Origin: Candidatus Nezhaarchaeales archaeon
GTDB taxonomy: Archaea; Thermoproteota; Methanomethylicia; Nezhaarchaeales; WYZ-LMO8
Direction: 5' to 3'
DNA length: 64,000 nucleotides
Assembly (NCBI GenBank): GCA_038887515.1
Contig: JAWAKK010000001.1
Coordinates: 541,836-605,835 of the forward strand
Under the pieces are notes generated by a model. It ran no database searches, was not told the DNA's origin, and saw nothing but the letters and a program-made list of their open reading frames with translations. Position numbers and translations under genes: made by a program. Numbering within the stretch: the stretch's first letter is position 1; every line of letters starts with the position of its first letter. Positions 33,673 through 50,658 of the stretch are shown in pieces.

Positions 33673-34080
33673 GTGGAGCCAGTAGTCTACGTCGATTGTA
33701 GAGTTGATGGAAAGCTATGCGGTAAGTGCTGTTATAACACTATGATGCCCCTAACTAAGAGAGATATTGAGAGGATTAAAGGCCTAGGCTTTAGGGAAGA
33801 GTACTTTGTTGATAGGCGCCGCCGCATCCCAAGGCTTAAAAACATAGAGGGGCACTGCGTCTTCCTCGATACTAGCACAAATACCTGCATCATCTACCCT
33901 GATAGACCTGAAGGTTGCCGCTTATACCCGTTAGTTTACGATGAAGAAAGCGACGCAGTCTTAGTAGATCCCTTATGCCCAAGGTCCCACTTAATACCAC
34001 AAAGACGCATAAGGGAACTCAGTAGCGCTCTCCTAAGCTTAATAGACGTGCTGATCAGGGAAAATATGAGCAAAGCGTAG
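33673..34080 (+). CDS. YkgJ-family (CxxCxxCC) cysteine-cluster protein
   Basis: CGKCC, CVFLD, C.IY..RP.GCRLYP. Confidence 0.88.
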   Translation: MEPVVYVDCRVDGKLCGKCCYNTMMPLTKRDIERIKGLGFREEYFVDRRRRIPRLKNIEGHCVFLDTSTNTCIIYPDRPEGCRLYPLVYDEESDAVLVDPLCPRSHLIPQRRIRELSSALLSLIDVLIRENMSKA

Positions 34081-34203
34081 GTTACCAGACGTTCTCAGGA
34101 TTACGGTATTGATCTCTAAACCTCAAAGACGTTTGAAGCTAATTTCAGCCGTTAACGATACAAAAAAAGTGGAAAGATTAATGTAGTGCTTTATTTTTAA
34201 ATA

Positions 34204-35133: not shown

Positions 35134-35203
35134 AACCTAATCCCCCTCGACCCTCTACGAGGTACTTCCATATTTAAGTTTTAAGCGGCATTTAACTTCA
35201 ACA

Positions 35204-36088: not shown

Positions 36089-36094
36089 ACACCT

Positions 36095-36451
36095 CTAGTC
36101 GGGGTAACTTACTACTACTAGCATTGAGGCCGGCATATTGGTCTCATTAATTATCCTCCGCTTAACGCCGGAGGGAATGTATATTGAGTCCATAGGACCC
36201 AGCGTGTATTTATTGCCCTCCTCATCGATGACTGTTATCGCCCCCGAAAGGACGAAGTAAACCCGTTCAGGTCCTGAATCCATTTCAGCGCCGCCGCCTG
36301 GCAGGAAGTGGGAAAGCCCTACCCAGAACTTTTGGGTGCCAGTAGTATCTCTACTGTGGAGTCTCAAAGCAACCATGTTGAAGTGCTTTGGTGCCTCGTA
36401 TGGCTTTACGTCCTTTAACTCCACCTTCTTAATCTTGCTCATTAATATCAC
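36095..36451 (-). CDS. Cupin-domain protein
   Basis: SHFLPGGGAE...ERVYFVLSG...DSIYIP; first gene of the cupin-SDR-cyclase operon. Confidence 0.85.
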   Translation of the reverse strand: MILMSKIKKVELKDVKPYEAPKHFNMVALRLHSRDTTGTQKFWVGLSHFLPGGGAEMDSGPERVYFVLSGAITVIDEEGNKYTLGPMDSIYIPSGVKRRIINETNMPASMLVVVSYPD

Positions 36452-36731
36452 CCTTCTTCAAGTTAAAGGGGTCCCCTAGAATTTTTAAGTTTTATTTTCC
36501 TCGATAGCTGCGCGCGGAAGACTTTCCATGGTAGGTTTAAGGCCGTAGGCAAAGTCTCCGCGTAAGTATTGAATGTTAGATGCTCAGTAAAGTGGAGATC
36601 ACGCCTTGTAAGTGTACTTTCATCGGGTATGCCAAGGTCCTTAGCTAGTACGCAAAGAAAGGCAATAGAATAATAGGAGAAATTTTTTAACTCTTCACGA
36701 CTTCAAAGGTGTAGCAATTGAGCTAAAAGGG

Positions 36732-37790
36732 GTGGCAAAATTGCCGTTTCATGGCGAATATAAAGACTTAGAGGTAATTGATGAAGGTCAAGGAGAACTT
36801 CTAAACTGGATGGATCCAGAGGACTTTCGGGAGTGGGTGCGCAAAAACAAAGATACGTCGCTTGTCGAAAAAGTCATGGACCCCAAGGAGGCCGTAAAAA
36901 AATTCATCAATGATGGTACTTACATAGCCTTAGGAGGATTCGGCCAAGTTCGAGTACCAATGGCCTTAATATACGAAATTATCAGGCAGGGCAAGAGAAA
37001 CCTAGTAGCTTCAGGGAAGACGTCAACCCACGATCTCGATGTACTGATAGCGGCTGGATGCGTCAGTAAAGTGGAGGCCTCATATCTTTCAGCCGGCCAC
37101 GAGCTAAGAGGGCTCTCGCCCGCAACTCGTAGAGCTGTTGAAAGCGGCCGCGTTAAGGTTGCAGCTGAATGGAGCAATGCAGCTCTTCAGTGGAGGTTTA
37201 AGGCTGCTGCTAACGGGTTACCGTGGATACCATCCTTTATACTCATGGGAACCGACACCTTTAGGCGAAGCGCTGCGAAAATAGTTAGGGATCCATTCAC
37301 CAAAAGGGCCATATGTTTAATACCTGCATGCTTCCCTGACGTTGCCATCATCCACGTACATAGATGTGATGTGTACGGTAACAGCCAGATAGACGGCATA
37401 ACAATCATGGACTGCGAGCTCGCTAGGGCTGCGAAGAGGGTTATTATAACGACTGAGAAGATAATACCTCACGAGAAGATACGCGAAGAGCCATGGCGTA
37501 CAGTAATTCCATTCTTTGTAGTAGATGCAGTCGTCGAAGTGCCGTTCGGTAGCCATCCCTGTAACATGCCGACGCTCTATTACTACGATGAAGAGCAAAT
37601 GGGCGAATACCTAAACCTTACGAGAACTGAGGAGGGCACAAAGGCTTACTTTGAGAAGTATGTCTATAGCGTTTCGGACCATTACGAATATTTGGAGAAG
37701 GTTGGAGGCGTGAAGAAGCTAATGCGATTAATTATGCTTGAACAAGGTAGAATACCGTTTGAGTACCCGTGGGTTGCGGCTAAGAGGTGA
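36732..37790 (+). CDS. gctA: Family I CoA-transferase, glutaconate CoA-transferase-like subunit A
   Basis: ALGGF...PMALIYEIIRQ, PDVAIIHV..CD.YGN, VDAVVEVPFGSHP. Confidence 0.85.
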   Translation: MAKLPFHGEYKDLEVIDEGQGELLNWMDPEDFREWVRKNKDTSLVEKVMDPKEAVKKFINDGTYIALGGFGQVRVPMALIYEIIRQGKRNLVASGKTSTHDLDVLIAAGCVSKVEASYLSAGHELRGLSPATRRAVESGRVKVAAEWSNAALQWRFKAAANGLPWIPSFILMGTDTFRRSAAKIVRDPFTKRAICLIPACFPDVAIIHVHRCDVYGNSQIDGITIMDCELARAAKRVIITTEKIIPHEKIREEPWRTVIPFFVVDAVVEVPFGSHPCNMPTLYYYDEEQMGEYLNLTRTEEGTKAYFEKYVYSVSDHYEYLEKVGGVKKLMRLIMLEQGRIPFEYPWVAAKR

Positions 37791-37794
37791 TGGT

Positions 37795-38574
37795 ATGAGT
37801 GGAGAACTTAAGTATACTAGGATGGAGCAGATGATTATAGCCTCGGCAAAGATGCTAGAGAACGGAAAAATAGTTTTCGTTGGCACCGGGATGCCCCTAC
37901 TAGCAGCTATGGTTGCAAAAGCACTTTACTCTCCAAAGCTAGTGCTCCTTTTCGAAGCTGGAGGTATAGATCCGCTTCCTGGACCAACGTTACCCATTAG
38001 TGTTGGAGACTCCATGACTACATGGAAGGCTAGCGCTGCGTTAAGCATGGATTACGTAATGACGTTGGCACAAGCAGGATTCATAGAGTACGGAATGTTA
38101 GGCGCGGCTCAAATAGACATGTACGGCAACATTAATACGACGGTTATAGGTCCTTGGGAAAGACCCAAAGTAAGGTTTCCCGGTAGCGGAGGAGCTAACG
38201 ATATTGGATCACTTTGTTGGAGAACTATAGTCATAATGAGACAGGATAAGACTAAGTTCGTTGAAAAGCTTGATTTCCTTACAACCCCAGGCTATTTCAA
38301 TGGCCCTGGAGCTAGGGAGAGAAACGGTCTGCCTAGAAACACAGGCCCGTGGAGGGTCGTAACTCAGCTCGGCGTTTACAGCTTCGACGAGAAGGACAAG
38401 AGAATGACGTTGCTAGCGGTATACCCCGGCGTTAGCCTTGAGGAGATAAAGGAGAATAGCGGCTTCCCCATAAAAATACCGGAAAAAATTGAGGTGCTCC
38501 CGGAGCCGACTGCCGAAGAGTTAAGGGTTCTGAGAAAACTAGATCCTTACGGCCTTGTCCTTGGTAAGGGCTAA
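37795..38574 (+). CDS. gctB: Family I CoA-transferase, glutaconate CoA-transferase-like subunit B
   Basis: FVGTGMP, LFEAG (catalytic Glu), AQIDMYGNINTT, GSGGAND; ATG at 37795 with GGTGA RBS. Confidence 0.85.
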   Translation: MSGELKYTRMEQMIIASAKMLENGKIVFVGTGMPLLAAMVAKALYSPKLVLLFEAGGIDPLPGPTLPISVGDSMTTWKASAALSMDYVMTLAQAGFIEYGMLGAAQIDMYGNINTTVIGPWERPKVRFPGSGGANDIGSLCWRTIVIMRQDKTKFVEKLDFLTTPGYFNGPGARERNGLPRNTGPWRVVTQLGVYSFDEKDKRMTLLAVYPGVSLEEIKENSGFPIKIPEKIEVLPEPTAEELRVLRKLDPYGLVLGKG

Positions 38575-38713
38575 CTTAACCTCCTCTACGAGTTTTATTC
38601 TTTTCCCCTTTTATTAGGTAACCCTCTCGTAGGTAAGATACTTATATTACTGGAAGAAGTCTTGAGAAAGGTTAAAAAACTTCAACGTTCGTTGTATGCT
38701 TTGGTGAGCGTTA

Positions 38714-39670
38714 ATGTCTTGGAACTATAATGATATGCAGGAATGGATTAGGAGGGTGAGGAGAGGGGAGCTACCTCCCCTGATAATAACTGTCGCGATA
38801 ACTGGAGGAATACAGGGAAAAGAGGTCACTCCTTACCTTCCTGAAAGCCCCGAAGAGCAAGCTCAACAAGCATACGAAGCGTATAAGGCAGGTGCATCAA
38901 TAGTACACATTCACGTTAGGGATCCGAAGACTGGCTACGCAACTCCGACAGCCGACCCGGCCCAGATAAGGCTCGTGAACAAAAAGGTTAGAGAGCTATG
39001 TCCCGACATAATAATTAACAATTCAACTGGCATAGGCTTATTCACGTCTCTTGAAGAGAGGCTTAAAGTGCTCGAAGCAGATCCCGAAATAGCTTCGCTT
39101 AACGTTGGGCCTGTTGCCTGGAGAACCCTACTTAAGAAGAGGGAGCCCGTGAGGACGCAAGACGTACAGGTAGACCTTACGTGGCCTCCGAACTTCACTT
39201 GGAGGGAGGCGGAAGTATTAGCTAAGAGGATGTTAGAGAAGAACGTAAAGCCTGAGTTCGAAGTCTATCAGCAAGGACACTTCCACGTGGTATATCATCT
39301 CATCGAAAACAACTTAACCAAAGAGCCGCACATCGTTCAACTAGTACTTGGAGTTACGGGTGGAGAGCTACCCCATTATAAGAACCTGATAAACATGGTG
39401 GAGCATCTACCTCCGAATAGCTTTCCGTTCGTAGTTGGAATAGGTCCATTCCAAGCATACCTAACCACTATGGCTATAGTCATGGGCCTTCACGTCAGAG
39501 TGGGCCTCGAAGACAACATATTCTACCGTAAAGGAGAGCTGGCAAAGAGTAACGCCCAATTAGTTGAGCGAGTAGTAAAGATAGCCAACGAGATAGGGAG
39601 ACCCATAGCGACCCCCGATGAAGCTAGAAAGATGCTTGGACTACCTAAAGAACCTAAGCAATACGACTAA
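38714..39670 (+). CDS. Beta-keto acid cleavage enzyme (BKACE/Kce, DUF849); candidate triacetate acetoacetate-lyase
   Basis: AITGG, AGASIVHIHVR, KPEFEVY, HVRVGLEDN, ATPDEAR motifs. Confidence 0.92.
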   Translation: MSWNYNDMQEWIRRVRRGELPPLIITVAITGGIQGKEVTPYLPESPEEQAQQAYEAYKAGASIVHIHVRDPKTGYATPTADPAQIRLVNKKVRELCPDIIINNSTGIGLFTSLEERLKVLEADPEIASLNVGPVAWRTLLKKREPVRTQDVQVDLTWPPNFTWREAEVLAKRMLEKNVKPEFEVYQQGHFHVVYHLIENNLTKEPHIVQLVLGVTGGELPHYKNLINMVEHLPPNSFPFVVGIGPFQAYLTTMAIVMGLHVRVGLEDNIFYRKGELAKSNAQLVERVVKIANEIGRPIATPDEARKMLGLPKEPKQYD

Positions 39671-39749
39671 CGGCTAACAATTTGAAGGCGATAAGCTTAT
39701 GGGGCTTCTACGATAGCGCGTATTAAGGGACTTAATGGAGGGATAATAG

Positions 39750-40712
39750 TTGAATAAAGTTAACATAAGGAAAGTAGCAGTATTGGGAGCCGGAACCATG
39801 GGTCATGGTATAGCTCAAGTTTGTGCTCAGAGCGGTTACGAAACCGTAATGGTAGCTACTAAGCCAGAGAGTCTGGCGAGAGCCCTAAACAATATCAAGA
39901 AGGATCTCGAAGTCTTCGTAAAGAAGAACCTCATAAATCGAGAGGACGTCGACAGAATAGTTTCAAGGATAACTATCGAGTTAAGCGTAGCAAAGGCCGT
40001 GAGAGAGGCAGATTTCGTGATCGAAAGCGTTGTAGAGGACTTGGAGGTTAAGAGAAAGATATTCAAGGAGGTTGACGATAACGCGCCTCCCCACGCGATC
40101 CTGGGCACCAATACGTCCACTATAAGCATAACTGAGCTTGCTAAAGTCACTCGTAGGCCCCAGATGGTCTTAGGGGTGCACTTCTGGAACCCGCCGCACC
40201 TCATGCCATTAGTTGAGATAGTTAAGACCGAGTACACATCGGATGAAGCCGTCGAGGTCGCAAGAGCGTTTATCGAAGATCTAGGAAAAGTCCCAGTTCT
40301 ATGTAAGAAAGAGGCTCCAGGCTACCTTGGAGTTAGGCTCCAGGCAGCCATAGTCCTAGAGGCTACTAGGATGCTTGAAGAAGGCGTAGCCTCAGCTGAA
40401 GATATAGATATAGCGGTTAAGATGACTCTAGGATTGAGGTATCCTCTATTTGGACCACTACAGGTGGTCGATTTAGGAGGTGTAGACGTCTTCTACTACG
40501 CTTACAGCTACTTGTATAACGCAACTAAAGAGGAGCGGTTTAAACCGCCGAAGATCCTTAAAGAGCTTGTTGAAAAGGGCAAGCTCGGAGTAAAGAGCTA
40601 CGAGGGCTTTTACAAGTACACTCCAGAGCAAGTAGAAAAGATAGTAAAGCTCAGAGACGAGTGGTTAATAGACCAACTCATAAGCAGAGGCCTACTAAAA
40701 ATAAAGAAGTAA
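39750..40712 (+). CDS. 3-hydroxyacyl(-CoA) dehydrogenase family; candidate 3-hydroxy-5-oxohexanoate dehydrogenase
   Basis: GAGTMGHGIA, ESVVE, TNTS, HFWNPPHLMPLVE motifs. Confidence 0.9.
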   Translation: MNKVNIRKVAVLGAGTMGHGIAQVCAQSGYETVMVATKPESLARALNNIKKDLEVFVKKNLINREDVDRIVSRITIELSVAKAVREADFVIESVVEDLEVKRKIFKEVDDNAPPHAILGTNTSTISITELAKVTRRPQMVLGVHFWNPPHLMPLVEIVKTEYTSDEAVEVARAFIEDLGKVPVLCKKEAPGYLGVRLQAAIVLEATRMLEEGVASAEDIDIAVKMTLGLRYPLFGPLQVVDLGGVDVFYYAYSYLYNATKEERFKPPKILKELVEKGKLGVKSYEGFYKYTPEQVEKIVKLRDEWLIDQLISRGLLKIKK

Positions 40713-40981
40713 ATAACAACTTAGCTATCTTCTACACCCTTTTTTTATCAAGCTAGCGAAGCTCTCCTAAAATTCGGTTTTTACGTACATTGCTTGCATT
40801 CTAAAAGCCTACTTAAAGCTATTTAGCAATCCTATCTTCCGTTCCCGCAGGAAATACCGAGAGTTTCTACGCGTTTAGAGAGTCGAGGACCATACGAATG
40901 AGAACAGTTATCGAAGTGAATTCTAGCGACTATTTTTAAAGAAGTTAGGCTTGTTTTGTCGTATATCGTAGTTAGCCGTCG

Positions 40982-41692
40982 TCAGCTTACGCCGACACTT
41001 ATATACCTTATCATATCCGCGACTTCCTCACATCTATCAACTGAGTTCTCTACTTCATCGACTATTTCCTTCGCTATAGCACACCATTTCGGCCCCTTCT
41101 CATCACACTTCGATAACACGTACTCTAAAAGAGCGGTTCTAATGTCGTCGACTTCTTCTTCAATGCGCTCTATCATGTCAGCAGTGGTAAGAGCTTTTCG
41201 AGGGTTGTCCGACATCTCTTTAAACGCTTGGTCTATCAGCATCATAGCCTCACGTAGCTTCAACGCCATGTTCAACAGTTTTGAAATGTACTCCTCGTCG
41301 AAGTAGACACCTATACGCGTCGAAATAAGCAATCTTCTAGCAGCCGCCTTAGAATAGTCAGCAACGTCGTCCAACCTTAGTACGAGCCTCATTATGTAGT
41401 CTCTGTCTAGAGGCAGTAAGGTAGCCTTCGACAAGTCGTATATAAAGTTCCTCTTGGCTTCATCAGCCCTACGCTCGGCCTTCAATACTTCGGAGAACGT
41501 TGAGCTCGCGTCGTCAAACCGCCTTTCCTCTATCGCCTTAAGCATTGAAATTAGACCTTCAATAACTTTCGTTACCTCAACGCCGTGCTCTATGCACTTA
41601 GACACTATACCCTTTTCAACTTTTTTAGATGCCCATATCCAAGTTGACACTAAGACCACCGTAAGGCACGTTCTTAGCTTTCCTCCCTGCAT
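40982..41692 (-). CDS. DUF47/PhoU-like phosphate transport regulator
   Basis: ERRADE...LDDVADY and IEEEVDD...DRCEEVAD repeats; downstream of PiT. Confidence 0.88.
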   Translation of the reverse strand: MQGGKLRTCLTVVLVSTWIWASKKVEKGIVSKCIEHGVEVTKVIEGLISMLKAIEERRFDDASSTFSEVLKAERRADEAKRNFIYDLSKATLLPLDRDYIMRLVLRLDDVADYSKAAARRLLISTRIGVYFDEEYISKLLNMALKLREAMMLIDQAFKEMSDNPRKALTTADMIERIEEEVDDIRTALLEYVLSKCDEKGPKWCAIAKEIVDEVENSVDRCEEVADMIRYISVGVS

Positions 41693-41711
41693 TTATATAC
41701 TTTGTTGTTTG

Positions 41712-42773
41712 TTAAATTGACAATCGTATCAAGGAGTGAGCGAAAAGGCAGAGACATGAAGCTATCCCCATCGTTACCGGGACGGTTAAAAGCCACGACA
41801 TTATTATGTAACCAGTTACCTTCATGTTTAATCCCCGTAAGCACCTAGCCTTCGCTATTCCGGCACCAATTATCGCCGACACACTTGTGTGAGTTGTCGA
41901 AATTGGCATGCCAAACCCCCAGAGCATGTAGGGTATAGTCGTGAATAACCATACAGTTAAAGCTAATGAGAAGCCCGCCGCAACCCCGCTTGGATTATCT
42001 AACCTAGTTATTCTAAACGCGGTGGTCTCCACCACTCTTCTCCCCAAAGTGAAGCCACCTATGGCAATGAATGTGCCTCCCATAAGAGATAAGAGCAACA
42101 TTGTTTCGTGCGTTGGTAACCCGAATTGTCTCTCTGTTATAGTTAAGTACACTCCAGTAGCATTAGCTACGTCATTCGCTCCGAAGGAATAGGCGGCAAA
42201 CGCCAAGGAAACTATGTGAAGCGCTAGGAATATCTTTTCAACGTCGCGTTTCACCCTAAGAGATAACTCGAGTTTTAGGAAGAGAAAGTACAGGAGGACG
42301 GCTAGACTCATGGCTATGGCTGGCGATGTTACCCAACTTAGTATGATCCTCGTCATGACGCTCCAATTTATTTCATCAAATTTAATGGAGCCTATTACAG
42401 CGTACGCTATACCTACCCCCAATATTGACCCCGTTACGCTCTGCGAAGTCGAAATGGGCAAACCGAGAAGAGTTGCAGTAAGTATCCATACGCCGGCCGC
42501 TACGACCGCTATTAGGGCGGCAACTATATCTATCTGAGGTACAATCCCCCTACCTAAGGTCTTAATTACGTAGCTCCCTTGGAGCAGGGCCCCAATGATA
42601 GTGAACATGGAGAATAGCAGGAGAGCCCTCCTTAATGTTAAGGCCCCGGCACCTACAGCGGTATCTATCGGGTTCGCAGCATCGTTAGCTCCTATATTGA
42701 AGGCCATGAAGGCTGACGCTGCCACTCCAATGATATAAAGTATTAGTTCTATCATCTCTTCCACATTTCTCAT
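41712..42773 (-). CDS. PiT-family inorganic phosphate transporter
   Basis: Two GANDxAN motifs and two PISTS/T motifs. Confidence 0.95.
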   Translation of the reverse strand: MRNVEEMIELILYIIGVAASAFMAFNIGANDAANPIDTAVGAGALTLRRALLLFSMFTIIGALLQGSYVIKTLGRGIVPQIDIVAALIAVVAAGVWILTATLLGLPISTSQSVTGSILGVGIAYAVIGSIKFDEINWSVMTRIILSWVTSPAIAMSLAVLLYFLFLKLELSLRVKRDVEKIFLALHIVSLAFAAYSFGANDVANATGVYLTITERQFGLPTHETMLLLSLMGGTFIAIGGFTLGRRVVETTAFRITRLDNPSGVAAGFSLALTVWLFTTIPYMLWGFGMPISTTHTSVSAIIGAGIAKARCLRGLNMKVTGYIIMSWLLTVPVTMGIASCLCLFAHSLIRLSI

Positions 42774-42957: not shown

Positions 42958-43980
42958 ATGGAAATTTATGACTTTGAAGCCCACTTCTATACGAAAGATT
43001 ACGTTAAAGCTCTGCTTAAAAACAAGGCTTATCCAAGATATAAGAAAGATGAGAAGCAAGATATCTATTGGCTTTTATATACGCCTAGCGTCCAAGAACC
43101 CCACGTAGGAGCGTTGCTTGAAAAGCTCCTCAACGTAGAGGAGAAGAGAATACATGATATGAGGGAGGCCGGCATAAAAGTTCAGATCCTAAGTCTCTCG
43201 GCACCTGGATGTGAGCAGCTAGGACCTAAGTTAGGTTCTAGGATGGCTAGGAAGGTCAACGACGAACTCTCGAGGATCGTTGAGAAAAACCCCGACAGAT
43301 TCATTGGGCTCGCAGCCCTCGCACCTCAAAGTCCCCAAGAAGCTGCGGAAGAGCTTGAGAGGGCTGTTAAGGATCTCGGACTTAAGGGTTGGAAGACCCA
43401 CTCCAACATACGTGGTGAGTACCTAGACAACGAGAAGTTCTGGCCTATACTAGAGAGAACTGAGAGGCTTCGTGTACCAATATTTCTGCATCCTACCGTC
43501 CCGAGGATAAAACAACTCGGAGAACCCTACGGGTACGCAATGGCTGGTCCAGCCTTTGGTTTCGTTTTTGAGACTGCTATGTGCTTAATGAGATTAATAC
43601 TGAGCGGCGTCTTCGATAAGTTCCCTAACCTAAAGTTCGTGCTAGGGCACCTTGGAGAGGCCATGCCGTTTCTCATCAACCGTATAGACTTTCCTCGCGT
43701 GAGGCCATGGGTCTACGAAAGCATGGACGTAAAAATATCGAAGAAGCCCAGCGAGTACTTGAAGAATAATGTGTTTATACTTACGAGCGGCGAATTCCCC
43801 GTACCAGCAATATCCTGCGCCATAGAGATAATGGGCTTAGACAGGGTTCTCTTCGGTTCAGACTATCCCTACGAAAACTCTGTAGATGCTGTGAAGCGCA
43901 TTGAAGCTCTACCTCTCTCAAAGGAGGAAAAAGAGAAGATATACTCTCAAAACGCTAAATCGCTCCTAGGTATACGTTGA
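42958..43980 (+). CDS. Amidohydrolase_2-family metal-dependent decarboxylase (hydroxybenzoate/resorcylate decarboxylase-like)
   Basis: DFEAH (ExH), ILSLSAPG, FLHP, GHLGE, GSDYPY. Confidence 0.82.
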   Translation: MEIYDFEAHFYTKDYVKALLKNKAYPRYKKDEKQDIYWLLYTPSVQEPHVGALLEKLLNVEEKRIHDMREAGIKVQILSLSAPGCEQLGPKLGSRMARKVNDELSRIVEKNPDRFIGLAALAPQSPQEAAEELERAVKDLGLKGWKTHSNIRGEYLDNEKFWPILERTERLRVPIFLHPTVPRIKQLGEPYGYAMAGPAFGFVFETAMCLMRLILSGVFDKFPNLKFVLGHLGEAMPFLINRIDFPRVRPWVYESMDVKISKKPSEYLKNNVFILTSGEFPVPAISCAIEIMGLDRVLFGSDYPYENSVDAVKRIEALPLSKEEKEKIYSQNAKSLLGIR

Positions 43981-44061
43981 GGCGAGGCCCATAATCTCTG
44001 AAGAGTTAATGTCAACTGAAAGCTTAAAGCATAGGTCAAGAAACCAATATTAGCTAAAAAG

Positions 44062-45933
44062 GTGGTAGCATTGGTTTATGGTTATGCTGGTAAGATACTC
44101 TACATAGATCTAACGACCAAAGAAAGCTGGGTCAAAGCTCTCGATGTAGATTACGTCTATCCCGTAATCGGTGGAGCTGGGCTTGGAATAAAGATACTCA
44201 TGGACGAGGTCAACCCGAAAGTTGAACCACTATCCCCTGAGAACAAACTGATCTTTGCTGTAGGTCCACTAACAGGATCCTTAGCCCCCTGTACAAGTAG
44301 GATGGCTGTCGTATCTAAATCACCCTTAACAGGCGCAGTTGGAATGTCGCTTAGTGGCGGGTACTTCCCAGCTGAACTCAAGTTCGCCGGTTATGATGCT
44401 ATCGTAATATCGGGGAAAGCAGATGGACCGTCGTACATATGGATATACGACGATAAAGTGACCATAGGAGATGCATCAGGAATCTGGGGCTTATCGACGA
44501 CCGATACCCAAATAATATTGAGGGAAAAACTGAATCAACCTGAAGCTAAAGTAGCATGTATAGGACCGGCTGGTGAAAGACTAGTACGATACGCATGCAT
44601 AATAAACGAGAGGAGGGCGGCAGGAAGAAAGGGTCTAGGCGCTGTCATGGGTTCTAAGAACCTTAAGGCGATAGCTGTGAGGGGGACGAAAAAAGTTGAA
44701 GTTGCCGACCAAGAGAAGTTCAGAAAAGCTGTCAAGAGGATGTACGACTTAATGAAGGAAAGCCCTGTTCTCTACCCCTCTTTCTCGAAGATGGGGACAC
44801 CTATGACTGTTGAGGTTACGGCCGAGCTTGGAATACTTCCAGCTAAAAACTGGACTGCTACTGGCCTGTTCGCCCCAGTTGAAACTCTTGGTGGAGAGGC
44901 ACAAACTTATTACACCATCACCCGTATGGGTTGCTACAATTGTCCCGTAAGGTGCGGACAGGTAAAGGTTGTTAAAAGCGGTCCCTTCGCCGGCTTTATG
45001 ACTGAAGGGCCTGAGTTCGAGACCACATATAGCCTTGGAACCATGGTCGGTGTCAGCTACCTGCCGGCTGTAATAGCTGCCGACAGGCTATGCGACGAAT
45101 ACGGCTTAGATACCATATCCACTGGAGTATGCATAGCTTTTGCGATGGAGCTCGTCGAAAAAGGTATACTGTCGGCGGATGAGGTCGACGGTATGGACCT
45201 TAGATTCGGCAACTACGAAACCGTGGTAAAGATGATTAGAAAGATAGCCTTCAGAGAAGGGTTTGGAAACATACTTGCCGAGGGGGTTAAGCGTGCCTCA
45301 GAACTCATTGGAAGAGGCTCGGAGAGGTATGCACTTCACGTTAAAGGTCTTGAGCTACCTGGTTATGACGTTAGAGGAGCTAAAGCGCACGGCCTAAGTT
45401 ACGCTACTGCCTATACTGGAGCAGATCACAATAGGGGTTACTCTATACAAGAGATATTCAGTGTCCCAGTACCTTACAAAGTGGATAGGCTAGCGATAGA
45501 AGGTAAAGGAAAGCTTTGCAAGTGGAACCAGGACGTTAGGACTGCCGTCTGCGACTGCATGCCGCTCTGCGTGTTTCCGTTCGACATGGGGCTCGCAGCC
45601 AACGCCTTAGAGCTGATGTCAGAGCTCTACACAGCCTTAACCGGTTTATCCATGACGCCGGAGGAAGTCCAGAAAACTGGAGAAAGAGTCGTCAACATAG
45701 CTAGGGTATTTAACTTTAAGGCTGGCTTTACGAGAGCTGACGACACTCTCCCAGCGAGAGTCATGAAGGAGGGCATACCTGGAGGGGCATCGAAAGGACA
45801 AGTGATAACTCGAGAAGACCTGAATAAGATGCTAGACGAGTATTACGAAGCTCGAGGTTGGGATAAGGAGAAGGGCATACCAACTAAAGAAAAGATGGTT
45901 GAACTTGGCCTACCAATTGAGTGGCTAGCTTGA
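44062..45933 (+). CDS. aor: Tungsten/molybdopterin aldehyde:ferredoxin oxidoreductase family
   Basis: GYAGKIL, KSPLTG, GAVMGSKNLKA, CYNCPVRC, GPEFET, GLDTIS, EYYEARGWD. Confidence 0.94.
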   Translation: MVALVYGYAGKILYIDLTTKESWVKALDVDYVYPVIGGAGLGIKILMDEVNPKVEPLSPENKLIFAVGPLTGSLAPCTSRMAVVSKSPLTGAVGMSLSGGYFPAELKFAGYDAIVISGKADGPSYIWIYDDKVTIGDASGIWGLSTTDTQIILREKLNQPEAKVACIGPAGERLVRYACIINERRAAGRKGLGAVMGSKNLKAIAVRGTKKVEVADQEKFRKAVKRMYDLMKESPVLYPSFSKMGTPMTVEVTAELGILPAKNWTATGLFAPVETLGGEAQTYYTITRMGCYNCPVRCGQVKVVKSGPFAGFMTEGPEFETTYSLGTMVGVSYLPAVIAADRLCDEYGLDTISTGVCIAFAMELVEKGILSADEVDGMDLRFGNYETVVKMIRKIAFREGFGNILAEGVKRASELIGRGSERYALHVKGLELPGYDVRGAKAHGLSYATAYTGADHNRGYSIQEIFSVPVPYKVDRLAIEGKGKLCKWNQDVRTAVCDCMPLCVFPFDMGLAANALELMSELYTALTGLSMTPEEVQKTGERVVNIARVFNFKAGFTRADDTLPARVMKEGIPGGASKGQVITREDLNKMLDEYYEARGWDKEKGIPTKEKMVELGLPIEWLA

Positions 45934-45943
45934 CCTAGATCTC

Positions 45944-46588
45944 CTACTTCTCCTTTTTAATTTCATATATGAACGGTAAGATGACGGCTAGGTTCCTCAT
46001 CTCCTCAACGCAGTGCTGAAACAGTCCCTTAGCCATCTCATAGCTCGCATACTTCGGGTTAAGCCAGAACCTGCTCCTCATCTCGCATCCTACATCCCTG
46101 TCTCTGACGAAGTGAGTCATGAAGCCCGTTTCGACCTCTCCATCTGCTCCTCGAAAGTATATTCGAGCACAGACCGCAGTAGCTTTTGCTTGCTCGAGCT
46201 TAGCTGGATTGAAGTATTGCGAGGGATCCTGAAAGTGTATCCTGAGCTTAGCTACTGGGGGTTTGCCCCCCAGAGTCTCGTCAACTATGTGGCTTGCTCC
46301 AATGTAGCTTCCAGGGCTCCACTTGTCGTCCCACGCACCGTATATGTGGTCAACTGGATGCCAAAGCTTGTAGACCTCAGTATGCTCCTTAGGAGATAGA
46401 CCATAAGCGAACCACCACTCAATCATTCTCCTATTGCAGAGAGGCATTCTCGTAAGCACTGCTACTAAGTAATAGCCATCAGGTAGACGAACGTACCCGC
46501 TCTCTAAAGGCAGGTAGCCGGGCTCTAAAAGTCTACCTATTTCTTCAAGCCGCAACCCAAGACTCTCCAACAATTCATAGACCTCCAC
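45944..46588 (-). CDS. PhlG/phloretin-hydrolase-family C-C hydrolase
   Basis: MIEWWF, YKLWHPVDH, HIVDETLG, MTH...GCEMRSRFW, HCVEEMRNLA..LP (His/Glu/His/Glu metal ligands). Confidence 0.85.
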   Translation of the reverse strand: MEVYELLESLGLRLEEIGRLLEPGYLPLESGYVRLPDGYYLVAVLTRMPLCNRRMIEWWFAYGLSPKEHTEVYKLWHPVDHIYGAWDDKWSPGSYIGASHIVDETLGGKPPVAKLRIHFQDPSQYFNPAKLEQAKATAVCARIYFRGADGEVETGFMTHFVRDRDVGCEMRSRFWLNPKYASYEMAKGLFQHCVEEMRNLAVILPFIYEIKKEK

Positions 46589-46687
46589 AAATTCTAATTA
46601 CTTTCAACTCCTCGATATTATCATCGTAATCTATTTAAATTTAGCTCGAGTAATTATTTTAACTAGCAAGCAAACTATATACAACAT

Positions 46688-48046
46688 ATGGTGGAAAAAT
46701 TGGAGAAGAAAGAAGGCGTTGGGTTAACGAAAGTCCAAGCGATAGCGATAGTGGTCGTTGTCGTCGTTATTGTTGCGGGCGTTGCCGCCTACTTCTTAAC
46801 CCTACCTCCACCAGGTCCAGCTGCCCCCGAGTACATAAAGATCGGCTGGCCAGCTCCAATAACTGGGGGCATAGCAGCCTTTGCTGAGACTACGCCTTGG
46901 ATGGTCGAGCAAGTTGAAAAGTATGTTAACAACGTTATGGGCGGCGTTTACTTAGCTGAGTACGGTAAGAAGGTCCCGATAAAGATCATCTTGAGGGATA
47001 TTAAGAGCGATTCAGATGCTGCTGCTTCAGTTGCTGCTGAGCTAATAACTAGAGAGAACGTAGACTTAATGTTGGCCCTATACTCTCCAGCCATGACTAA
47101 CCCGATAAGCGCCCAATGTGAGAGGTACGGAGTCCCATGTATTGTCTCCCAAACTATAATAGTTTCGTGGTTAATGGGAGGCCCCTACACTTGGTCATAT
47201 TGTATTGGGCTAGCAGAACCAGACTACGCTGTACTATTCTTCGACCTCTTCGATACCATTAAAGACAAGACAAATAAAGTTGTTGCTCTGATAAATTCTG
47301 ATGATCCCGACGGTAGAGCTACTGCGGCTGCCTGGAAGGCACAAGCTGAGAAGCGAGGATATACGATAGTGGATCTTGGCCTAATACCCTACGGTACGAA
47401 AGATTTCAGCACGTACGTGGAAGCATGCAAGAAGGCCGGAGCAGACATACTTACAGGCAACATGATTCCCACGGACTTCGCATCATTCTGGAGGCAATGC
47501 AACGAGATGAGTTACAAGCCGAAGCTCGTGGCGATGGCTAGGTCCCTCCTGTTCCCATCGTGGGTAGCTGCTCTAGGCGGCGACTTAGGGAATGGATTAG
47601 TCGGATACATTTGGTGGACGCCCTACCATCCATACGAGTCTTCGTTAACGGGACAGACTCCTCAAGACCTATGCCAAGCTTGGGAGACCTACTCTGGCAA
47701 ACAGTGGACTCCTGTTTTAGGGATGACTCACGCGGTACTTGAAGTTGCGGTTAAAGCGATCGAGAAGGCTGGAAGTCTCGATAAGGCCAAGATAAGGGAT
47801 GCGTTAGCCAACATAGACTTAAACACTATAGTTGGACGCGTCAACTTCAAGGCTCCTCTAACGTCTAGCCAGCAAGCGAGGTATCAAGCATTTGAGAACA
47901 TGATTAAATACAAGGATCACTACGTCGTCGTACCACCAGTCGCAATTCAGTGGGTTAAGGTAGGGGAACGCTGGGATCCAGTAATAATTTACAATTGGGA
48001 GAGTCCAGATATCCCTGTTACAGGTAAGCTTTTCTTACTGAACTGA
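46688..48046 (+). CDS. Membrane-anchored ABC substrate-binding protein, LivJ-like family
   Basis: N-terminal TM anchor, IKIG...PITG..AAF, AIEKAGSLD...IRDAL...TIVG.VNF; no permease or ATPase adjacent. Confidence 0.88.
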   Translation: MVEKLEKKEGVGLTKVQAIAIVVVVVVIVAGVAAYFLTLPPPGPAAPEYIKIGWPAPITGGIAAFAETTPWMVEQVEKYVNNVMGGVYLAEYGKKVPIKIILRDIKSDSDAAASVAAELITRENVDLMLALYSPAMTNPISAQCERYGVPCIVSQTIIVSWLMGGPYTWSYCIGLAEPDYAVLFFDLFDTIKDKTNKVVALINSDDPDGRATAAAWKAQAEKRGYTIVDLGLIPYGTKDFSTYVEACKKAGADILTGNMIPTDFASFWRQCNEMSYKPKLVAMARSLLFPSWVAALGGDLGNGLVGYIWWTPYHPYESSLTGQTPQDLCQAWETYSGKQWTPVLGMTHAVLEVAVKAIEKAGSLDKAKIRDALANIDLNTIVGRVNFKAPLTSSQQARYQAFENMIKYKDHYVVVPPVAIQWVKVGERWDPVIIYNWESPDIPVTGKLFLLN

Positions 48047-48064
48047 GAGATTAGGCTGCATCTC

Positions 48065-48669
48065 TCATCTTACCTTCAACTTTTTTATGTTTTTAATTAA
48101 GCTTCTAGAGGAAGTGATCCATCCAAACATGTTACTTATATTCCAGAGAGATGACCTTCTAGCGCAGTTAGGTCCTATAGCTTCGCAGCAGTCTGATACA
48201 ACTATTGGCCAGAACTCTCTAAAGAAGGCGTCTCGAACCGTTGATTCCACGCATATGTTTAACGCTATCCCCACGAAAAAAGAGGTACTTGACCTTAAGC
48301 TGTTTGAGTACCTCCTCAAGCTTTGTATTTACGAACCCGCTGTACCTCTGCTTGTTGATTACGATGTCTCCTGCTAAAGGTTTAACTTCATCGATTATCT
48401 CGGGATTCAGGTCCACCGGCGTCGGATAGATCTTGCGAGTATACGTGCCTGACGTAGATTATCTTTAACCCTGCCTCCCTCCAAGAAGCTAAAACTCTCT
48501 TAACTGGTTCAATTATTCTCCGAAGCCTTGAAATGTCGAATCCCAATATGTCAAACATACCGCCATAGCTTAAGAAGGCTTTCTGCATGTCAACAACTAT
48601 TAAGCAGGACCTCGTTAAATCCACGGTCACAGGGCTTGGTTTTGCCGGAAGCCTAATCAAATTAGGCAT
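48065..48669 (-). pseudogene. Isochorismatase/RutB-like cysteine hydrolase, disrupted
   Basis: VVDMQ, KQRYSGF and GIALNICVEST.RDA lie in three different frames; apparent internal deletion after GGPES and an extra T in a T6 run (48276-48281). Confidence 0.85.
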
Positions 48670-48753
48670 TTTTACCACCAAAGCTATTCGATAGAACTTA
48701 ATCTATCGTATTGAATATAAGCTTGCTGAATCCCTAATTAATGGGGTGTAGCG

Positions 48754-49041
48754 TTGATAACCGTCAAGGTACGGCCCCTCTTCAACCTAAAGAGAATTAT
48801 AGGTTCGAGCGAGTTGACGCTGAAGCTGAAAGAGGGATCCACGATAAGAGACTTAATTTATGTGCTAGTTGAACGCTATGGGGATGAGCTTGAGAAGCTT
48901 CTCTTAAAGGGAGGAGATGAAGGCAAAAGGAACATAGCCATTTTTGTTAACGGTAGGCTTATAGATTTCATAGATGGCGACGCTACGAGGCTTTCCGACG
49001 GCGACGTGGTTTCCATGATACCCCCGGCTGGAGGAGGTTAA
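48754..49041 (+). CDS. moaD: MoaD/SAMP ubiquitin-like sulfur carrier
   Basis: IFVNG...L.DGD.V..IPPAGGG with C-terminal GG; near aor. Confidence 0.9.
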   Translation: MITVKVRPLFNLKRIIGSSELTLKLKEGSTIRDLIYVLVERYGDELEKLLLKGGDEGKRNIAIFVNGRLIDFIDGDATRLSDGDVVSMIPPAGGG

Positions 49042-49137: not shown

Positions 49138-50658
49138 TTGCTTAAGCTTAAAGGCGATGTATTTAAGGATGTTATTGAAAAAGATCGAGACGTATACAAA
49201 TTTAAGACCTTCTTAGCTGGTGACTGGGTTAGCGGCGAAGAAAGCGTTGAAGTGAGGAGCCCCATAGATCTCAGCGTGATAGCTAGAGTTCCAAAGCTGA
49301 CGTTCGATGAAGCTGAAAGGACCTTGGACGTCGTATATAAAGCTGGTAGGTGGAAGATCAGGGACGTGCCGGGGTGGAGAAGGCTTGATATGCTAGAAAG
49401 GTTGGCTGACCTAATGGAGGAGTACAGCGAAGACCTCGTAGAGACATTAATAGTCAACACCGGAAAGACTGGGCCCCAAGCGATTGGTGAAGTAAATGCT
49501 TCAATAGATAGGCTTAGAAGAGCCGACTTAGATGCTAGGAAGATATTCGGTGAGTACATACCAGGCGACTGGGATCAGACAACCATGGAGACGGAGGCAA
49601 CCATAAGGAGAGAGCCCCTCGGAGTTGTCTTGGCCATTGTGCCTTTCAACTACCCGCTCTTCGATTCAGCCGCTAAGTTCGCCTACAGCATTGTGGCTGG
49701 AAACGCCGTAATGATAAAGCCTCCATCGGCAGACCCGCTACCAGTCTTACTATTCGCAAGACTAATTGAAGAGGCCGGGTTCCCCAAAGAATCCTTTGCT
49801 GTCCTAACCCTACCAGGCGGGGAGAGCGGTAGACTCGTAGCAGACGAAAGAATCCACGTAATCAGCTTTACTGGAAGTAGCGAGACCGGCAAAAAAGTGC
49901 TAGCTGCAGCTGGGATAAAGCAGTTCGTAATGGAGCTTGGCGGGGGAGACCCAGCAATAGTCTTAGAGGACTCCAACCTAGAGCTAGCCGCAGAAAGGAT
50001 AGCTGCGGGAATATATAGCTACGCTGGACAGAGGTGCGACGCGATAAAGCTCGTCATCGTAGAGGAGAGCATATACGACGAGTTTAAGAGAAAGTTGGCG
50101 AAGGAGCTAGCTAAAGTAGTCGTAGGAGACCCTAGGGATGGCATAACGGTCATGGGCCCGCTGATAAGTCCGGATGCTGTAGATAGGATGCTCAATGCAG
50201 TTGAAGAAGCAGTAAGTAGGGGAGGAACCGTAGTCTACGGTGGCAGGAGGCTTGGATCGACGTACGTGGAGCCGACATTAGTGGAGTTCCTCAATAAGAG
50301 TTCCTTAAAGGATTTAAGACTATATAGGGAGGAAGTCTTCGCCCCCGTAGCGTTGATCACGAGCTTCAAGGAATTGGATGAAGCAGTAGATTTAGCGAAT
50401 GGTAGAAGGTACGGGTTGGACGTATCCATATTTGGCTTCAACATAGAGAGGCTAAGGAGGCTCATTAGGTTCCTCGAGTTTGGAGCCATATACGTAAACG
50501 ACATGCCTAGGCACGGAGTCGGCTACTACCCCTTCGGAGGTAGAAAGGAATCTGGGATTGGGAGGGAAGGAATAGGCTACTCGATAGAGTACGTGACGGC
50601 CTACAAGACCATAGTCTTCAACTTTAGAGGTATGAGAATTTGGAAGTACGCTGGGTAG
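49138..50658 (+). CDS. gapN: Non-phosphorylating glyceraldehyde-3-phosphate dehydrogenase (Thermoproteus-type GAPN)
   Basis: PFNYPLF, SFTGS, ELGGGDP, YAGQRCDA, EEVFAP, PRHGVGYYPFGGRK. Confidence 0.9.
   Translation: MLKLKGDVFKDVIEKDRDVYKFKTFLAGDWVSGEESVEVRSPIDLSVIARVPKLTFDEAERTLDVVYKAGRWKIRDVPGWRRLDMLERLADLMEEYSEDLVETLIVNTGKTGPQAIGEVNASIDRLRRADLDARKIFGEYIPGDWDQTTMETEATIRREPLGVVLAIVPFNYPLFDSAAKFAYSIVAGNAVMIKPPSADPLPVLLFARLIEEAGFPKESFAVLTLPGGESGRLVADERIHVISFTGSSETGKKVLAAAGIKQFVMELGGGDPAIVLEDSNLELAAERIAAGIYSYAGQRCDAIKLVIVEESIYDEFKRKLAKELAKVVVGDPRDGITVMGPLISPDAVDRMLNAVEEAVSRGGTVVYGGRRLGSTYVEPTLVEFLNKSSLKDLRLYREEVFAPVALITSFKELDEAVDLANGRRYGLDVSIFGFNIERLRRLIRFLEFGAIYVNDMPRHGVGYYPFGGRKESGIGREGIGYSIEYVTAYKTIVFNFRGMRIWKYAG

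Follow-up and report, generated by a model that had tools for sequence, protein, structure and literature searches.

An accessory set of genes adjoining a known phloroglucinol-degrading gene set was found in a hot-spring archaeon, within the 64,000-nt stretch of DNA analyzed as a whole (the window). All five genes that the initial annotation had placed in positions 42958–49041 were recovered there by Pfam search with intact catalytic residues, and the core set claimed in their vicinity was likewise identified by Pfam, its end lying 2.2 kb upstream. Five of the six module genes were full length in comparison with their orthologues, and all their catalytic residues were kept. The sixth, overlooked in the initial annotation, was a broken gene of an isochorismatase-family hydrolase (48071–48660, minus strand), recognized by tblastn with the intact orthologues from two PhlG-like loci of other genomes (L016 and L054), by reading of the DNA and from ORF pieces. 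It was distributed over three frames, with about 30 residues missing near 48401–48403 and the reading frame shifted within a T6 run (near 48270–48280); the step served by this hydrolase was probably lost in the host.

The core set (34204–40712; Pfam, NCBIfam, and synteny) was intact and consisted of a DPGC-like cyclase, a PGR-like SDR, a cupin, CoA-transferase A/B, BKACE, and 3HCDH; the BKACE reached 213 bits versus the cut-off of 430 of a related NCBIfam equivalog. As in the phloroglucinol cluster of Clostridium scatologenes (PGR, DPGC, dehydrogenase, and TAL), described in PMC10470551, genes of the SDR, the cyclase, a 3-hydroxyacyl-CoA dehydrogenase-like protein, and BKACE were adjacent, together with the CoA-transferase. 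The same paper (mBio 2023) already reports DAPG_hydrolase in some phloroglucinol clusters, with Archaeoglobus as an archaeal host, and its supplement contains Bathyarchaeota cyclase homologues; the archaeal phylum of the present host is a different one. The main text of PMC10470551 contains no occurrence of amidohydrolase decarboxylases, aldehyde oxidoreductases, binding proteins, or cupins.

Core and periphery had initially been taken for one utilization island. In the synteny with genomes of the same genus, the core was an insertion between native genes, while the peripheral module was located at a breakpoint separate from this insertion; thus, the two do not constitute one island. The genes of PhoU and Pho4 between them were native according to synteny, which had escaped the initial annotation. 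No PhlG-like gene was present in any other genome of the host's class (61 genomes), and neither the core nor the peripheral module was found in close kin.

The gene at 45944–46588 (minus strand) encoded a short form of zinc C–C hydrolases of the PhlG/phloretin hydrolase family (214 aa; 207–216 aa in orthologues). Its assignment to the DAPG-hydrolase family was borne out by profile search (Pfam DAPG_hydrolase, 160.9 bits, cut-off 22.7), while the NCBIfam PhlG equivalog gave 55.8 bits versus a cut-off of 600. The metal ligands proposed as intact (H81, E104, H192, and E196) were indeed invariant in 30 of 30 homologues and, by hand count along the alignment, corresponded to H123, E154, H259, and E263 of phloretin hydrolase 5xe5. 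The best Foldseek matches of the AlphaFold2 model (pLDDT 92.6) were phloretin hydrolases Phy (5xe5/5xey, TMq 0.79–0.82) and PhlG (3hwp, 0.77), with the next folds at about 0.5; the model supports the predicted Phy/PhlG fold and ligands. With Phy (Eubacterium ramulus; Mycobacterium abscessus, 5xe5/5xey) and PhlG (Pseudomonas, 3hwp), the protein shared the DAPG_hydrolase domain, the Bet v1-like fold, the His/Glu/His/Glu positions, and motifs such as LLEPGYL, WHPxxH, and EMRSRFW. However, identity to these enzymes was 25–30%, and the protein was shorter than they are (274–302 aa): their first 50–65 residues are missing, as are about 25 residues inserted ahead of their last helix. It comprised the catalytic Bet v1-like domain alone. 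None of the PhlG-like family hits (142 proteins, E ≤ 0.001), members of the short clade included, bore a functional name, and our literature search found no assay of a short-form PhlG-like protein or of any enzyme of the present module.

The only Amidohydro_2 protein of the host genome (42958–43980, plus strand; 153.8 bits in Pfam) was a metal-dependent decarboxylase of the ACMSD/LigW/γ-resorcylate type with 340 aa (339–340 aa in orthologues). Its N-terminus, MEIYDFEAHF, provided the E7-x-H9 pair, and its ligands E7, H9, H178, and D302 matched the set Glu8, His10, His164, and Asp287 of γ-resorcylate decarboxylase (γ-RSD) given in PMC8187880; H178, D302, and the catalytic H231 were invariant among six homologues. 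The E-x-H/His/Asp metal site and the catalytic His were common to this protein, γ-RSD, and LigW, with E values of 1e-52 to 2e-61 (3s4t, 9.9e-52; 4inf, 2.1e-61) and about 40% identity to LigW. The γ-RSD mechanism associated with this four-ligand site, as described in PMC8187880, requires an ortho-hydroxybenzoate with two atoms bound to the metal, which fits 2,4,6-trihydroxybenzoate as a putative substrate. PMC6031855 names five pocket residues of LigW, of which four were kept in the alignment; the missing one is Arg58, which disfavors 5-carboxyvanillate as a substrate. No NCBIfam model matched the decarboxylase at 1e-5, and no match with a functional name was obtained among more than 1000 environmental members of its clade. 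This clade (1199 proteins, E ≤ 1e-40) is far larger than the PhlG-like family and must therefore have roles beyond the PhlG-like context. The γ-RSD of Polaromonas reportedly accepts 2,4,6-trihydroxybenzoate.

A LivJ-type substrate-binding protein (Peripla_BP_6, 150 bits; 452 aa, as in orthologues) with an N-terminal membrane anchor was encoded at 46688–48046 on the plus strand, divergently from the hydrolase gene, as had been proposed, with 99 bp between them. We failed to find genes of ABC permeases or ATPases in the window, and the nearest ABC permease gene was more than 200 kb away from that of the binding protein, which is an orphan. Elsewhere in the host genome, a pyrogallol-transhydroxylase-like pair was located beside a complete LIV-type ABC system.

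Co-occurrence was analyzed in 79 PhlG-like loci, with neighbors called by our own bit-score cut-offs: a DPGC-like cyclase was present in 33 of them, a LivJ-like protein in 39, the decarboxylase in 12, and an AOR (tungsten-type aldehyde:ferredoxin oxidoreductase) in 6. Forty-two loci from other genomes had flanks of at least 8 kb in either direction. Among these, 27 contained the cyclase (median distance of 3.2 kb), and the decarboxylase accompanied 10 of the 27 cyclase-positive loci versus none of the 15 cyclase-negative ones, so the proposed co-occurrence of the PhlG-like and decarboxylase genes with the core was seen across other lineages. The LivJ gene was present in 22 of these 27 and in 3 of these 15 loci, and the AOR was present in 2 of the 42. 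The SDR and 3HCDH matches in other PhlG-like loci were 31–45% identical and could be paralogues. A single 14-kb run in L054 combined SBP, AOR, isochorismatase, PhlG-like, ThiS, Amidohydro_2, IclR, ABC, SBP, cyclase, and cupin genes, while L016 comprised PhlG-like, AOR, decarboxylase, isochorismatase, and LivJ genes in 4.9 kb. In a phylum sample of 401 genomes, the PhlG-like gene was found in three of the four genomes with a cyclase orthologue, the three being from different families, versus 0 of the 397 without it. In two genomes, G152 and G396, it was located within 13 kb of the cyclase, SDR, cupin, and 3HCDH genes, with no AOR found together with the hydrolase and the core; one in-frame stop was present in each of the PhlG-like and cyclase matches of G396. 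The orthologues of the binding protein (70%), decarboxylase (71%), and PhlG-like hydrolase (75%) stood side by side in G152, adjoining a full ABC system. In G041, the contig with the PhlG-like gene was not that of the cyclase orthologue, and no cyclase was found in G042.

The AOR gene of the host (44062–45933, plus strand; Pfam AFOR_N, 268 bits, and AFOR_C, 452 bits) followed the decarboxylase gene in the same orientation after 81 nt, and their co-transcription is presumed. The protein of 623 aa (616–630 aa in orthologues) contained the CxxCxxxC motif and, by sequence, is closest to the AOR of P. furiosus (1aor, full-length match, 1e-148, 500 bits), likewise of the single-subunit archaeal type, and far from BamB (4z3w, 268 bits). 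A MoaD/ThiS-family protein of 95 aa with a Gly-Gly C-terminus was encoded at 48754–49041 on the plus strand (Pfam ThiS/MoaD, 52.9 bits; NCBIfam moaD_arch, 67.3 versus a cut-off of 49.5), 2.8 kb from the AOR gene with three genes between; it is probably a sulfur carrier for the AOR pterin cofactor. AOR and MoaD genes were also adjacent in the same-genus genome G002, in L054, and at a second AOR of the host genome. According to PMC6365974, MoaD-like aorD/aorE similarly accompany the AOR in the aor operon of Aromatoleum aromaticum; unlike in that operon, no genes of AorA/AorC-type subunits were found near the host AOR.

In the phylogenetic tree, the six AORs adjoining PhlG-like genes and the G002 orthologue formed one clade (support 98/97), separate from the AORs of P. 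furiosus and A. aromaticum; six of its seven sampled members, from archaea and Desulfobacterota-type bacteria, adjoined a PhlG-like gene, and the other AOR paralogues of the host, whose genome has six AOR paralogues, fell outside. The place of the AOR in the funnel proposed by the initial annotation is supported by a distinct PhlG-linked clade in two domains of life and weakened by the restriction of this linkage to 6 of the 79 loci. That scarcity, the G152 trio clustered with the core without an AOR, the number of host paralogues, and the MoaD-like genes at another host AOR would also suit another reading, unlikely in our opinion, in which only the binding protein, decarboxylase, and PhlG-like hydrolase serve phloroglucinol, and AOR–MoaD is a mobile, self-contained broad-range unit (aldehyde detoxification or acid/aldehyde redox balancing) travelling with anaerobic catabolic islands. 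AORs are broad-range enzymes, judging by the substrate table in PMC6365974, and the closest orthologue (87%, G002) keeps its MoaD in a different context, together with acetone-carboxylase-like genes, a CoA-transferase gene, and two genes of MoeA; the G002 genome, 69% complete, yielded no PhlG-like gene. However, a single clade across archaea and bacteria would not be expected if generic paralogues had become neighbors by chance, the decarboxylase gene precedes the AOR gene on one strand both in the host and in L016, and G152 encodes a cytochrome oxidase, which offers an alternative explanation for the missing oxygen-sensitive tungsten enzyme.

The PhlG/Phy chemistry is retro-Claisen cleavage of a β-diketone-like system, and the short protein, in which the N-terminal part of the assayed enzymes is missing, might accordingly be a core β-diketone hydrolase that replaces or supplements the BKACE lyase, for instance with triacetate (3,5-dioxohexanoate) or a related cyclic diketone as its substrate. 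We regard this as quite improbable: although no BKACE match was obtained in 10 of the 27 full-flank loci with a cyclase or in G152 and G396 with their core and PhlG-like genes, both genes were present in the other 17 loci and in the host stretch, the 15 full-flank loci without a nearby cyclase still contain the PhlG-like gene, and the motifs common with phloretin hydrolase reach well past the metal ligands. That the module is a decaying transfer remnant rather than a working pathway, as the isochorismatase-like pseudogene and the remote permeases could suggest, is highly improbable given the five full-length genes, the intact adjacent core, and the existence of orphan binding proteins that share an importer.

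The evidence comes from comparative genomics only, and it partly supports the reading of the module as an accessory funnel: gene co-occurrence across lineages, the Phy/PhlG fold and ligands, the decarboxylase metal site, and the AOR clade linkage speak for the polyphenol funnel initially proposed, while the single island did not stand. We consider it fairly probable that positions 42958–49041 represent an accessory module (an "upper pathway") that was acquired horizontally and converts substituted phloroglucinols to phloroglucinol for the adjacent reductive ring cleavage. The membrane-anchored LivJ-type protein would bind an aromatic compound and deliver it to its presumed partner, an ABC importer of the LIV type with genes elsewhere in the genome. 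The short hydrolase would cut the aryl-ketone C–C bond of an acylphloroglucinol resembling phloretin or acetylphloroglucinol (with phloretin or DAPG as putative substrates), yielding phloroglucinol and a carboxylic acid. The tungsten AOR, serviced by its own MoaD-like protein, would operate in the presumed direction from a ring aldehyde to the acid, a candidate substrate being 2,4,6-trihydroxybenzaldehyde, which stems from the A-ring of anthocyanidins; the γ-resorcylate-type Mn/Zn decarboxylase would then convert an ortho-hydroxybenzoate, such as 2,4,6-trihydroxybenzoate, to phloroglucinol. As judged from gene content, this gene combination recurs in unrelated anaerobes, and in the host the module probably trims plant-polyphenol fragments to phloroglucinol.

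All five genes that the initial annotation had named for the peripheral module were recovered, each at its predicted position, in the ORF listing and in Pfam and NCBIfam scans. The module starts with a decarboxylase of the Amidohydro_2 family (42958–43980, plus strand), followed 81 nt further 3' on the same strand by a full-length aldehyde:ferredoxin oxidoreductase (AOR, 44062–45933), with which it may form an operon. The gene of a 214-aa protein with a DAPG_hydrolase domain (45944–46588, minus strand) is convergent with the AOR gene. As annotated, the gene of a LivJ-type binding protein with an N-terminal hydrophobic anchor (46688–48046, plus strand) diverges from the hydrolase gene, 99 bp separating the two. 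A MoaD-family protein with a C-terminal Gly-Gly (48754–49041, plus strand; NCBIfam moaD_arch) is encoded at the other end of the module, and three short minus-strand ORFs between the binding-protein gene and MoaD represent a broken isochorismatase-like gene. The next gene after MoaD (49138–50658, plus strand), encoding an archaeal non-phosphorylating GAPDH, scored 801.9 bits against an NCBIfam equivalog cut-off of 780 and was treated as housekeeping. Genomes G001 and G002 have orthologues of this GAPDH (66% identity), and a search at E <= 1e-50 gave none in G005, G006, or G009. No window-mapped reads were detected in a sample of about 3% of each of two metatranscriptome runs of the same study.

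The core of phloroglucinol-pathway genes was found upstream of the module (34204–40712) and consists of cyclase (DPGC-like), SDR (PGR-like), cupin, CoA-transferase A/B, BKACE, and 3-hydroxyacyl-CoA-dehydrogenase-family (3HCDH) genes. At the level of gene families, it holds the adjacent SDR, cyclase-family, BKACE, and 3HCDH genes by which an anaerobic phloroglucinol cluster is recognized; the phloroglucinol cluster of Clostridium scatologenes is made up of the same four families (PMC10470551). A structure search with the core proteins found no solved PGR or DPGC structure as a comparator; the best matches were SDRs of a generic kind and either kynurenine formamidase or isatin hydrolase. The cupin (118 aa, 36095–36451, minus strand) is conserved together with the cyclase, occurring in 25 of the 42 PhlG-like loci that are flanked by 8 kb or more on each side (hereafter full-flank loci; from the best 80 of 570 matches) and also in G152 and G396, two genomes of the phylum sample. 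The main text of the pathway paper of 2023 (PMC10470551) does not contain the word cupin.

The HMM check proposed for the hydrolase placed it in the DAPG-hydrolase family (Pfam PF18089, 160.9 bits against a cut-off of 22.7), residues 13–209 spanning profile positions 3–223 of 223. Solved phloretin hydrolase (Phy) matched it at E 1e-19 and solved 2,4-diacetylphloroglucinol hydrolase (PhlG) at E 1e-12. Unlike the assayed PhlG and Phy proteins, it has no N-terminal segment of about 50–65 residues: the alignments begin at residue 54 of Phy 5xe5 and residue 67 of PhlG 3hwp, and the first start codon of the ORF is preceded by a stop codon. The metal site was rightly described as intact, since H81, E104, H192, and E196 occur without exception in the 30 homologues aligned and correspond to His/Glu of 5xe5; we take these residues to be the ligands of a two-His/two-Glu zinc site. 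The AlphaFold2 model (pLDDT 92.6) has a Bet v1-like fold, with a TMq of 0.79–0.82 to Phy 5xe5/5xey and 0.77 to PhlG 3hwp; the next folds were generic Bet v1/START (TMq about 0.5). An assignment to PhlG proper was discarded at 55.8 bits against the cut-off of 600 of the NCBIfam equivalog NF047887. The hydrolase sits in a clade of short proteins (about 195–220 aa), the closest members of which stand under the record titles Bathyarchaeia (73–75%), Caldarchaeum (60%), and, at about 50%, Deltaproteobacteria or Thermodesulfobacteriota.

The decarboxylase, scoring 153.8 bits with Amidohydro_2 (Pfam), is an amidohydrolase, as initially proposed, and belongs to the ACMSD branch. Its matches among solved structures were 5-carboxyvanillate decarboxylase (LigW) 4inf (2.1e-61) and the gamma-resorcylate decarboxylases (gamma-RSD) 3s4t (9.9e-52) and 2dvt (1.6e-45). 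As a candidate LigW it keeps four of the five pocket residues Arg58, Phe212, His241, Arg252, and Tyr317 (PMC6031855), Arg58 facing Pro48/His49 in a stretch aligned less surely, and it was not filed as LigW. Its site, E7-x-H9/H178/D302 plus the catalytic H231, is of the four-ligand gamma-RSD type (Glu-x-His, His, Asp; PMC8187880) and not of the three-ligand LigW type (PMC6031855). In six module-linked homologues, E7 was kept in five, and H9, H178, H231, and D302 in all. Gamma-RSD family enzymes bind an ortho-hydroxybenzoate to the metal, according to PMC8187880. Given this family mechanism and the gene context, 2,4,6-trihydroxybenzoate would be the simplest candidate substrate. The Polaromonas gamma-RSD reportedly takes this compound. 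The clade is large (1199 proteins at E <= 1e-40), and no functional names were found among the 120 matches listed.

The AOR has the architecture AFOR_N + AFOR_C (268 and 452 bits, Pfam), and a CxxCxxxC motif is readable in its translation. Its nearest solved relative is 1aor with 500 bits, against 365 for FOR 1b25 and 268 for BamB 4z3w; the last score excludes a BamB-type dearomatising reductase. The enzyme would presumably work in the direction from aldehyde to acid, as the initial annotation had it. The accompanying small protein, annotated as MoaD/SAMP, proved to be a MoaD (moaD_arch, 67.3 against 49.5) with the C-terminal sequence GGG, while its score for the SAMP1 equivalog was below the cut-off (47.2 against 60; NCBIfam). 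MoaD-like genes occur within aor operons of Aromatoleum, according to PMC6365974. Six AOR paralogues and three MoaD/ThiS genes were encoded in the host genome, one of the latter adjoining another AOR.

The isochorismatase-like gene was overlooked at first reading; its three short minus-strand ORFs jointly encode a hydrolase of the isochorismatase family. Intact orthologues from two related loci align to these ORFs in three frames (tblastn), about 30 residues are absent at one frame junction, and the second frame change falls in a run of six T in the DNA; the gene is therefore broken here. In loci L016 and L054, it is intact within the same module. DNA contigs of the sequencing run X1 contain no indel across this region; as the window may itself derive from X1, they are not independent support for the pseudogene.

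Regarding the binding protein, profile scans revealed no BPD_transp_2 or ABC_tran gene in the 64-kb window, so that its gene does not stand beside permease and ATPase genes, the arrangement of a LIV-type uptake system. The host genome was found to encode two ABC systems of the LIV type, both on the same contig and more than 200 kb from the module, along with five Peripla_BP_6 proteins; a transport partner would presumably be encoded outside the window. In the structure search for a ligand, the best match was weak, a Leu/Ile/Val-binding protein (E 3.7e-17). Within this gene, at 46748–47071, the X1 contigs break into short pieces with a coverage of 30–52x, against 17–20x on either side, and one variant piece carries 7 differences; the stretch is either repeated or variable between strains. 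The connection of the module's left half to its right half depends on it, and the ORF still reads through its full length.

Orthologues of the PhlG-like, cyclase, and decarboxylase genes were not found in close relatives. The PhlG-like gene was found in none of 40 relatives and in none of 61 other genomes of the class; the cyclase was represented in relatives by distant paralogues at most (<=44% identity over about 120 residues), and no decarboxylase match there exceeded 43% identity. Co-occurrence was therefore examined in other lineages. A scan of species-representative genomes gave 570 confirmed PhlG-like matches, the best 80 of which provided 79 loci; neighbours were counted by local tblastn with the window proteins, using bit-score cut-offs set in this analysis. 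Among these 79 loci, a DPGC-like cyclase was near the PhlG-like gene in 33, a cupin in 30, a LivJ-like protein in 39, the decarboxylase in 12, AOR in 6, an isochorismatase-like gene in 2, and MoaD in 1. The cyclase was present in 27 of the 42 full-flank loci within this best-80 set, at a median distance of 3.2 kb. In the same full-flank set, the decarboxylase occurred in 10 of the 27 cyclase-positive loci against 0 of the 15 cyclase-less ones, and LivJ in 22 of 27 against 3 of 15.

In the phylum sample of 401 genomes, a cyclase orthologue was found in four genomes, each of a different family, and the PhlG-like gene in three, all of them among these four. In G152 and G396, the PhlG-like gene is located less than 13 kb from the cyclase, SDR, cupin, and 3HCDH genes. 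The G152 genes for the binding protein (70%), decarboxylase (71%), and hydrolase (75%) are adjacent and downstream of a complete ABC system; the PhlG-like and cyclase matches of G396 contain one in-frame stop each. Thus, the full-flank counts and the phylum sample bear out the expected co-occurrence of module genes with the core in other lineages, as counts from related and hence not independent genomes. Matches to SDR and 3HCDH in other loci (31–45% identity) may be paralogues. In G041, hydrolase and cyclase were on different contigs, and in G042, the cyclase was not found. A role of the PhlG-like protein as a stand-in for BKACE is weakened because 17 of the 27 cyclase-positive full-flank loci (best 80 of 570 matches) carry both.

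Orthologues of the window AOR (57–82% identity) adjoin PhlG-like genes in six of the 79 loci from the best 80 matches, two in Bathyarchaeia- or Bathyarchaeota-titled records and four in Desulfobacterota-type or 'Proteobacteria' records. In L016, hydrolase, AOR, decarboxylase, isochorismatase, and binding protein are encoded within 4.9 kb; L054 contains the run SBP (binding protein), AOR, isochorismatase, PhlG-like, ThiS, Amidohydro_2, IclR, ABC, SBP, cyclase, and cupin. A maximum-likelihood tree built from 21 AORs united the six PhlG-adjacent enzymes and one more in one clade (support 98/97), split into archaeal and bacterial halves (each 100/100), and the remaining AOR paralogues of the host clustered with vertical orthologues of relatives. 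The seventh member is an 87% orthologue in G002, of the same genus as the host, in the genome of which (69% complete) no PhlG-like gene was found. Genome G152, without AOR, encodes cytochrome oxidase. Given the six loci, the tree clade, and the other context in G002, the link between AOR and PhlG-like genes is real but confined to anaerobes and not obligatory. The AOR locus of G002 (L110, G002:C7, 1182–17066) contains an adjacent MoaD (59%), acetone-carboxylase/hydantoinase-like genes, a CoA-transferase A/B pair, and two MoeA genes, one of which carries a fused PBP-like domain.

In G005 and G002, both of the same genus as the host, the HIT, BFN-domain, SIR2, CxxCxxCC, PhoU, and Pho4 genes are contiguous and have 51–81% identity to the window copies. 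The window has the seven core genes as an insertion between CxxCxxCC (flank 33673–34080) and PhoU–Pho4 (40982–42773), and synteny stops right after Pho4, where the peripheral module starts. Core and periphery lie on either side of native PhoU–Pho4 and do not constitute the single polyphenol-utilisation island initially proposed. They represent separate events, each an acquisition or a rearrangement, on the two sides of native phosphate-transport genes, because the core is inserted before PhoU–Pho4 and synteny breaks anew after Pho4. The nearest homologues of all module proteins belong to other archaeal classes, which suggests transfer within archaea, the bacterial relatives being more distant. 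We failed to find a tRNA gene as an integration mark in the window or convincing direct repeats flanking the insertion sites. A 19-nt AT-rich inverted repeat, 84% complementary, at both core ends (34181–34199 and 40696–40714) may well be due to chance. A chemotaxis and archaellum block (9564–30649) and a DUF7343/MarR/TrmB-type HTH gene (31182–32039) are likewise missing in G005 and G002, within a stretch that is syntenic otherwise; the HTH gene could be a regulator gained together with the catabolic genes.

Elsewhere in the host genome (G000:C1, about 249700–258200; locus L135, 5764–14163), a LIV-type ABC system with a binding protein (contig 1, about 249.7–254.5 kb) is followed by a pyrogallol-hydroxytransferase-like pair. 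Its large subunit (908 aa) has 72% identity to a copy adjoining the PhlG-like gene in L015, a locus of a Bathyarchaeia-titled genome, and the matching Fe-S small subunit 57% to its counterpart there. By virtue of this pair, the host has a candidate tannin-to-phloroglucinol route, which by gene content would fit a polyphenol-use lifestyle. Two loci of that Bathyarchaeia-titled genome (L015, 3859–11386; L118, G041:C10, 1297–14458) contain two pyrogallol-hydroxytransferase-like genes, two AORs, a PhlG-like gene, and a 76% cyclase orthologue, along with an ene-reductase-like gene (Oxidored_FMN + Pyr_redox_2) that is divided among three ORFs; this content suggests that its set of polyphenol genes is broader.

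The core pathway, its presence in Archaeoglobus, and DAPG_hydrolase genes in some clusters are already reported in PMC10470551, and Bathyarchaeota cyclase homologues appear in its supplementary list. Neither its text nor literature searches mentioned the clade of short hydrolases as such, the association of this clade with a LivJ-type binding protein and a gamma-resorcylate-like decarboxylase, a dedicated AOR–MoaD clade in anaerobes, or an isochorismatase-like module member. Titles and abstract openings retrieved in a literature search included no paper on the phloroglucinol pathway in Bathyarchaeia/Bathyarchaeota, and none among the literature matches listed dealt with a prokaryotic trihydroxybenzoate/resorcylate-type decarboxylase. 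Counting against a feeder role of the module are the broken isochorismatase-like gene, the binding protein without neighbouring transporter genes, the AOR orthologue of G002 in its other setting, the extent of the decarboxylase clade outside this context, and the state of hydrolase and cyclase in G041 and G042. Phloroglucinaldehyde is the A-ring product of cyanidin, according to a review (PMC13165170). A tentative reading, which we consider possible rather than probable, is that a conserved anaerobe-specific funnel for formyl-, carboxy-, and acyl-phloroglucinols has been exchanged between Desulfobacterota-type bacteria and Thermoproteota-type archaea. This funnel would comprise a LivJ-type binding protein, a decarboxylase resembling gamma-RSD, a C-C hydrolase of minimal PhlG-like form, an isochorismatase-like hydrolase, and a dedicated clade of tungsten AORs that have their own MoaD, and it would let hot-spring archaea ferment flavonoid/anthocyanin A-rings. 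If this funnel reading is true, no tungsten enzyme would have been assigned to polyphenol catabolism before the AOR, and 2,4,6-trihydroxybenzaldehyde:ferredoxin oxidoreductase and 2,4,6-trihydroxybenzoate decarboxylase would be new activities.

Phloroglucinol is the hub of oxygen-free flavonoid and tannin mineralisation, and the genes for cleavage of its ring were reportedly identified only in 2023. To our knowledge, gut bacteria acting on phloretin-type compounds are the only known case of substituted phloroglucinols entering this hub. The present locus and related ones suggest a larger array of feeder enzymes, including a clade of oxygen-sensitive tungsten enzymes and a decarboxylase clade, as yet uncharacterised, of more than 1000 environmental members, which may offer thermostable catalysts for C-C cleavage and (de)carboxylation. 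They place such feeder capacity, gained by transfer, in small-genome archaea, which bears on the turnover of plant-phenolic carbon in anoxic, hot, and sedimentary habitats.
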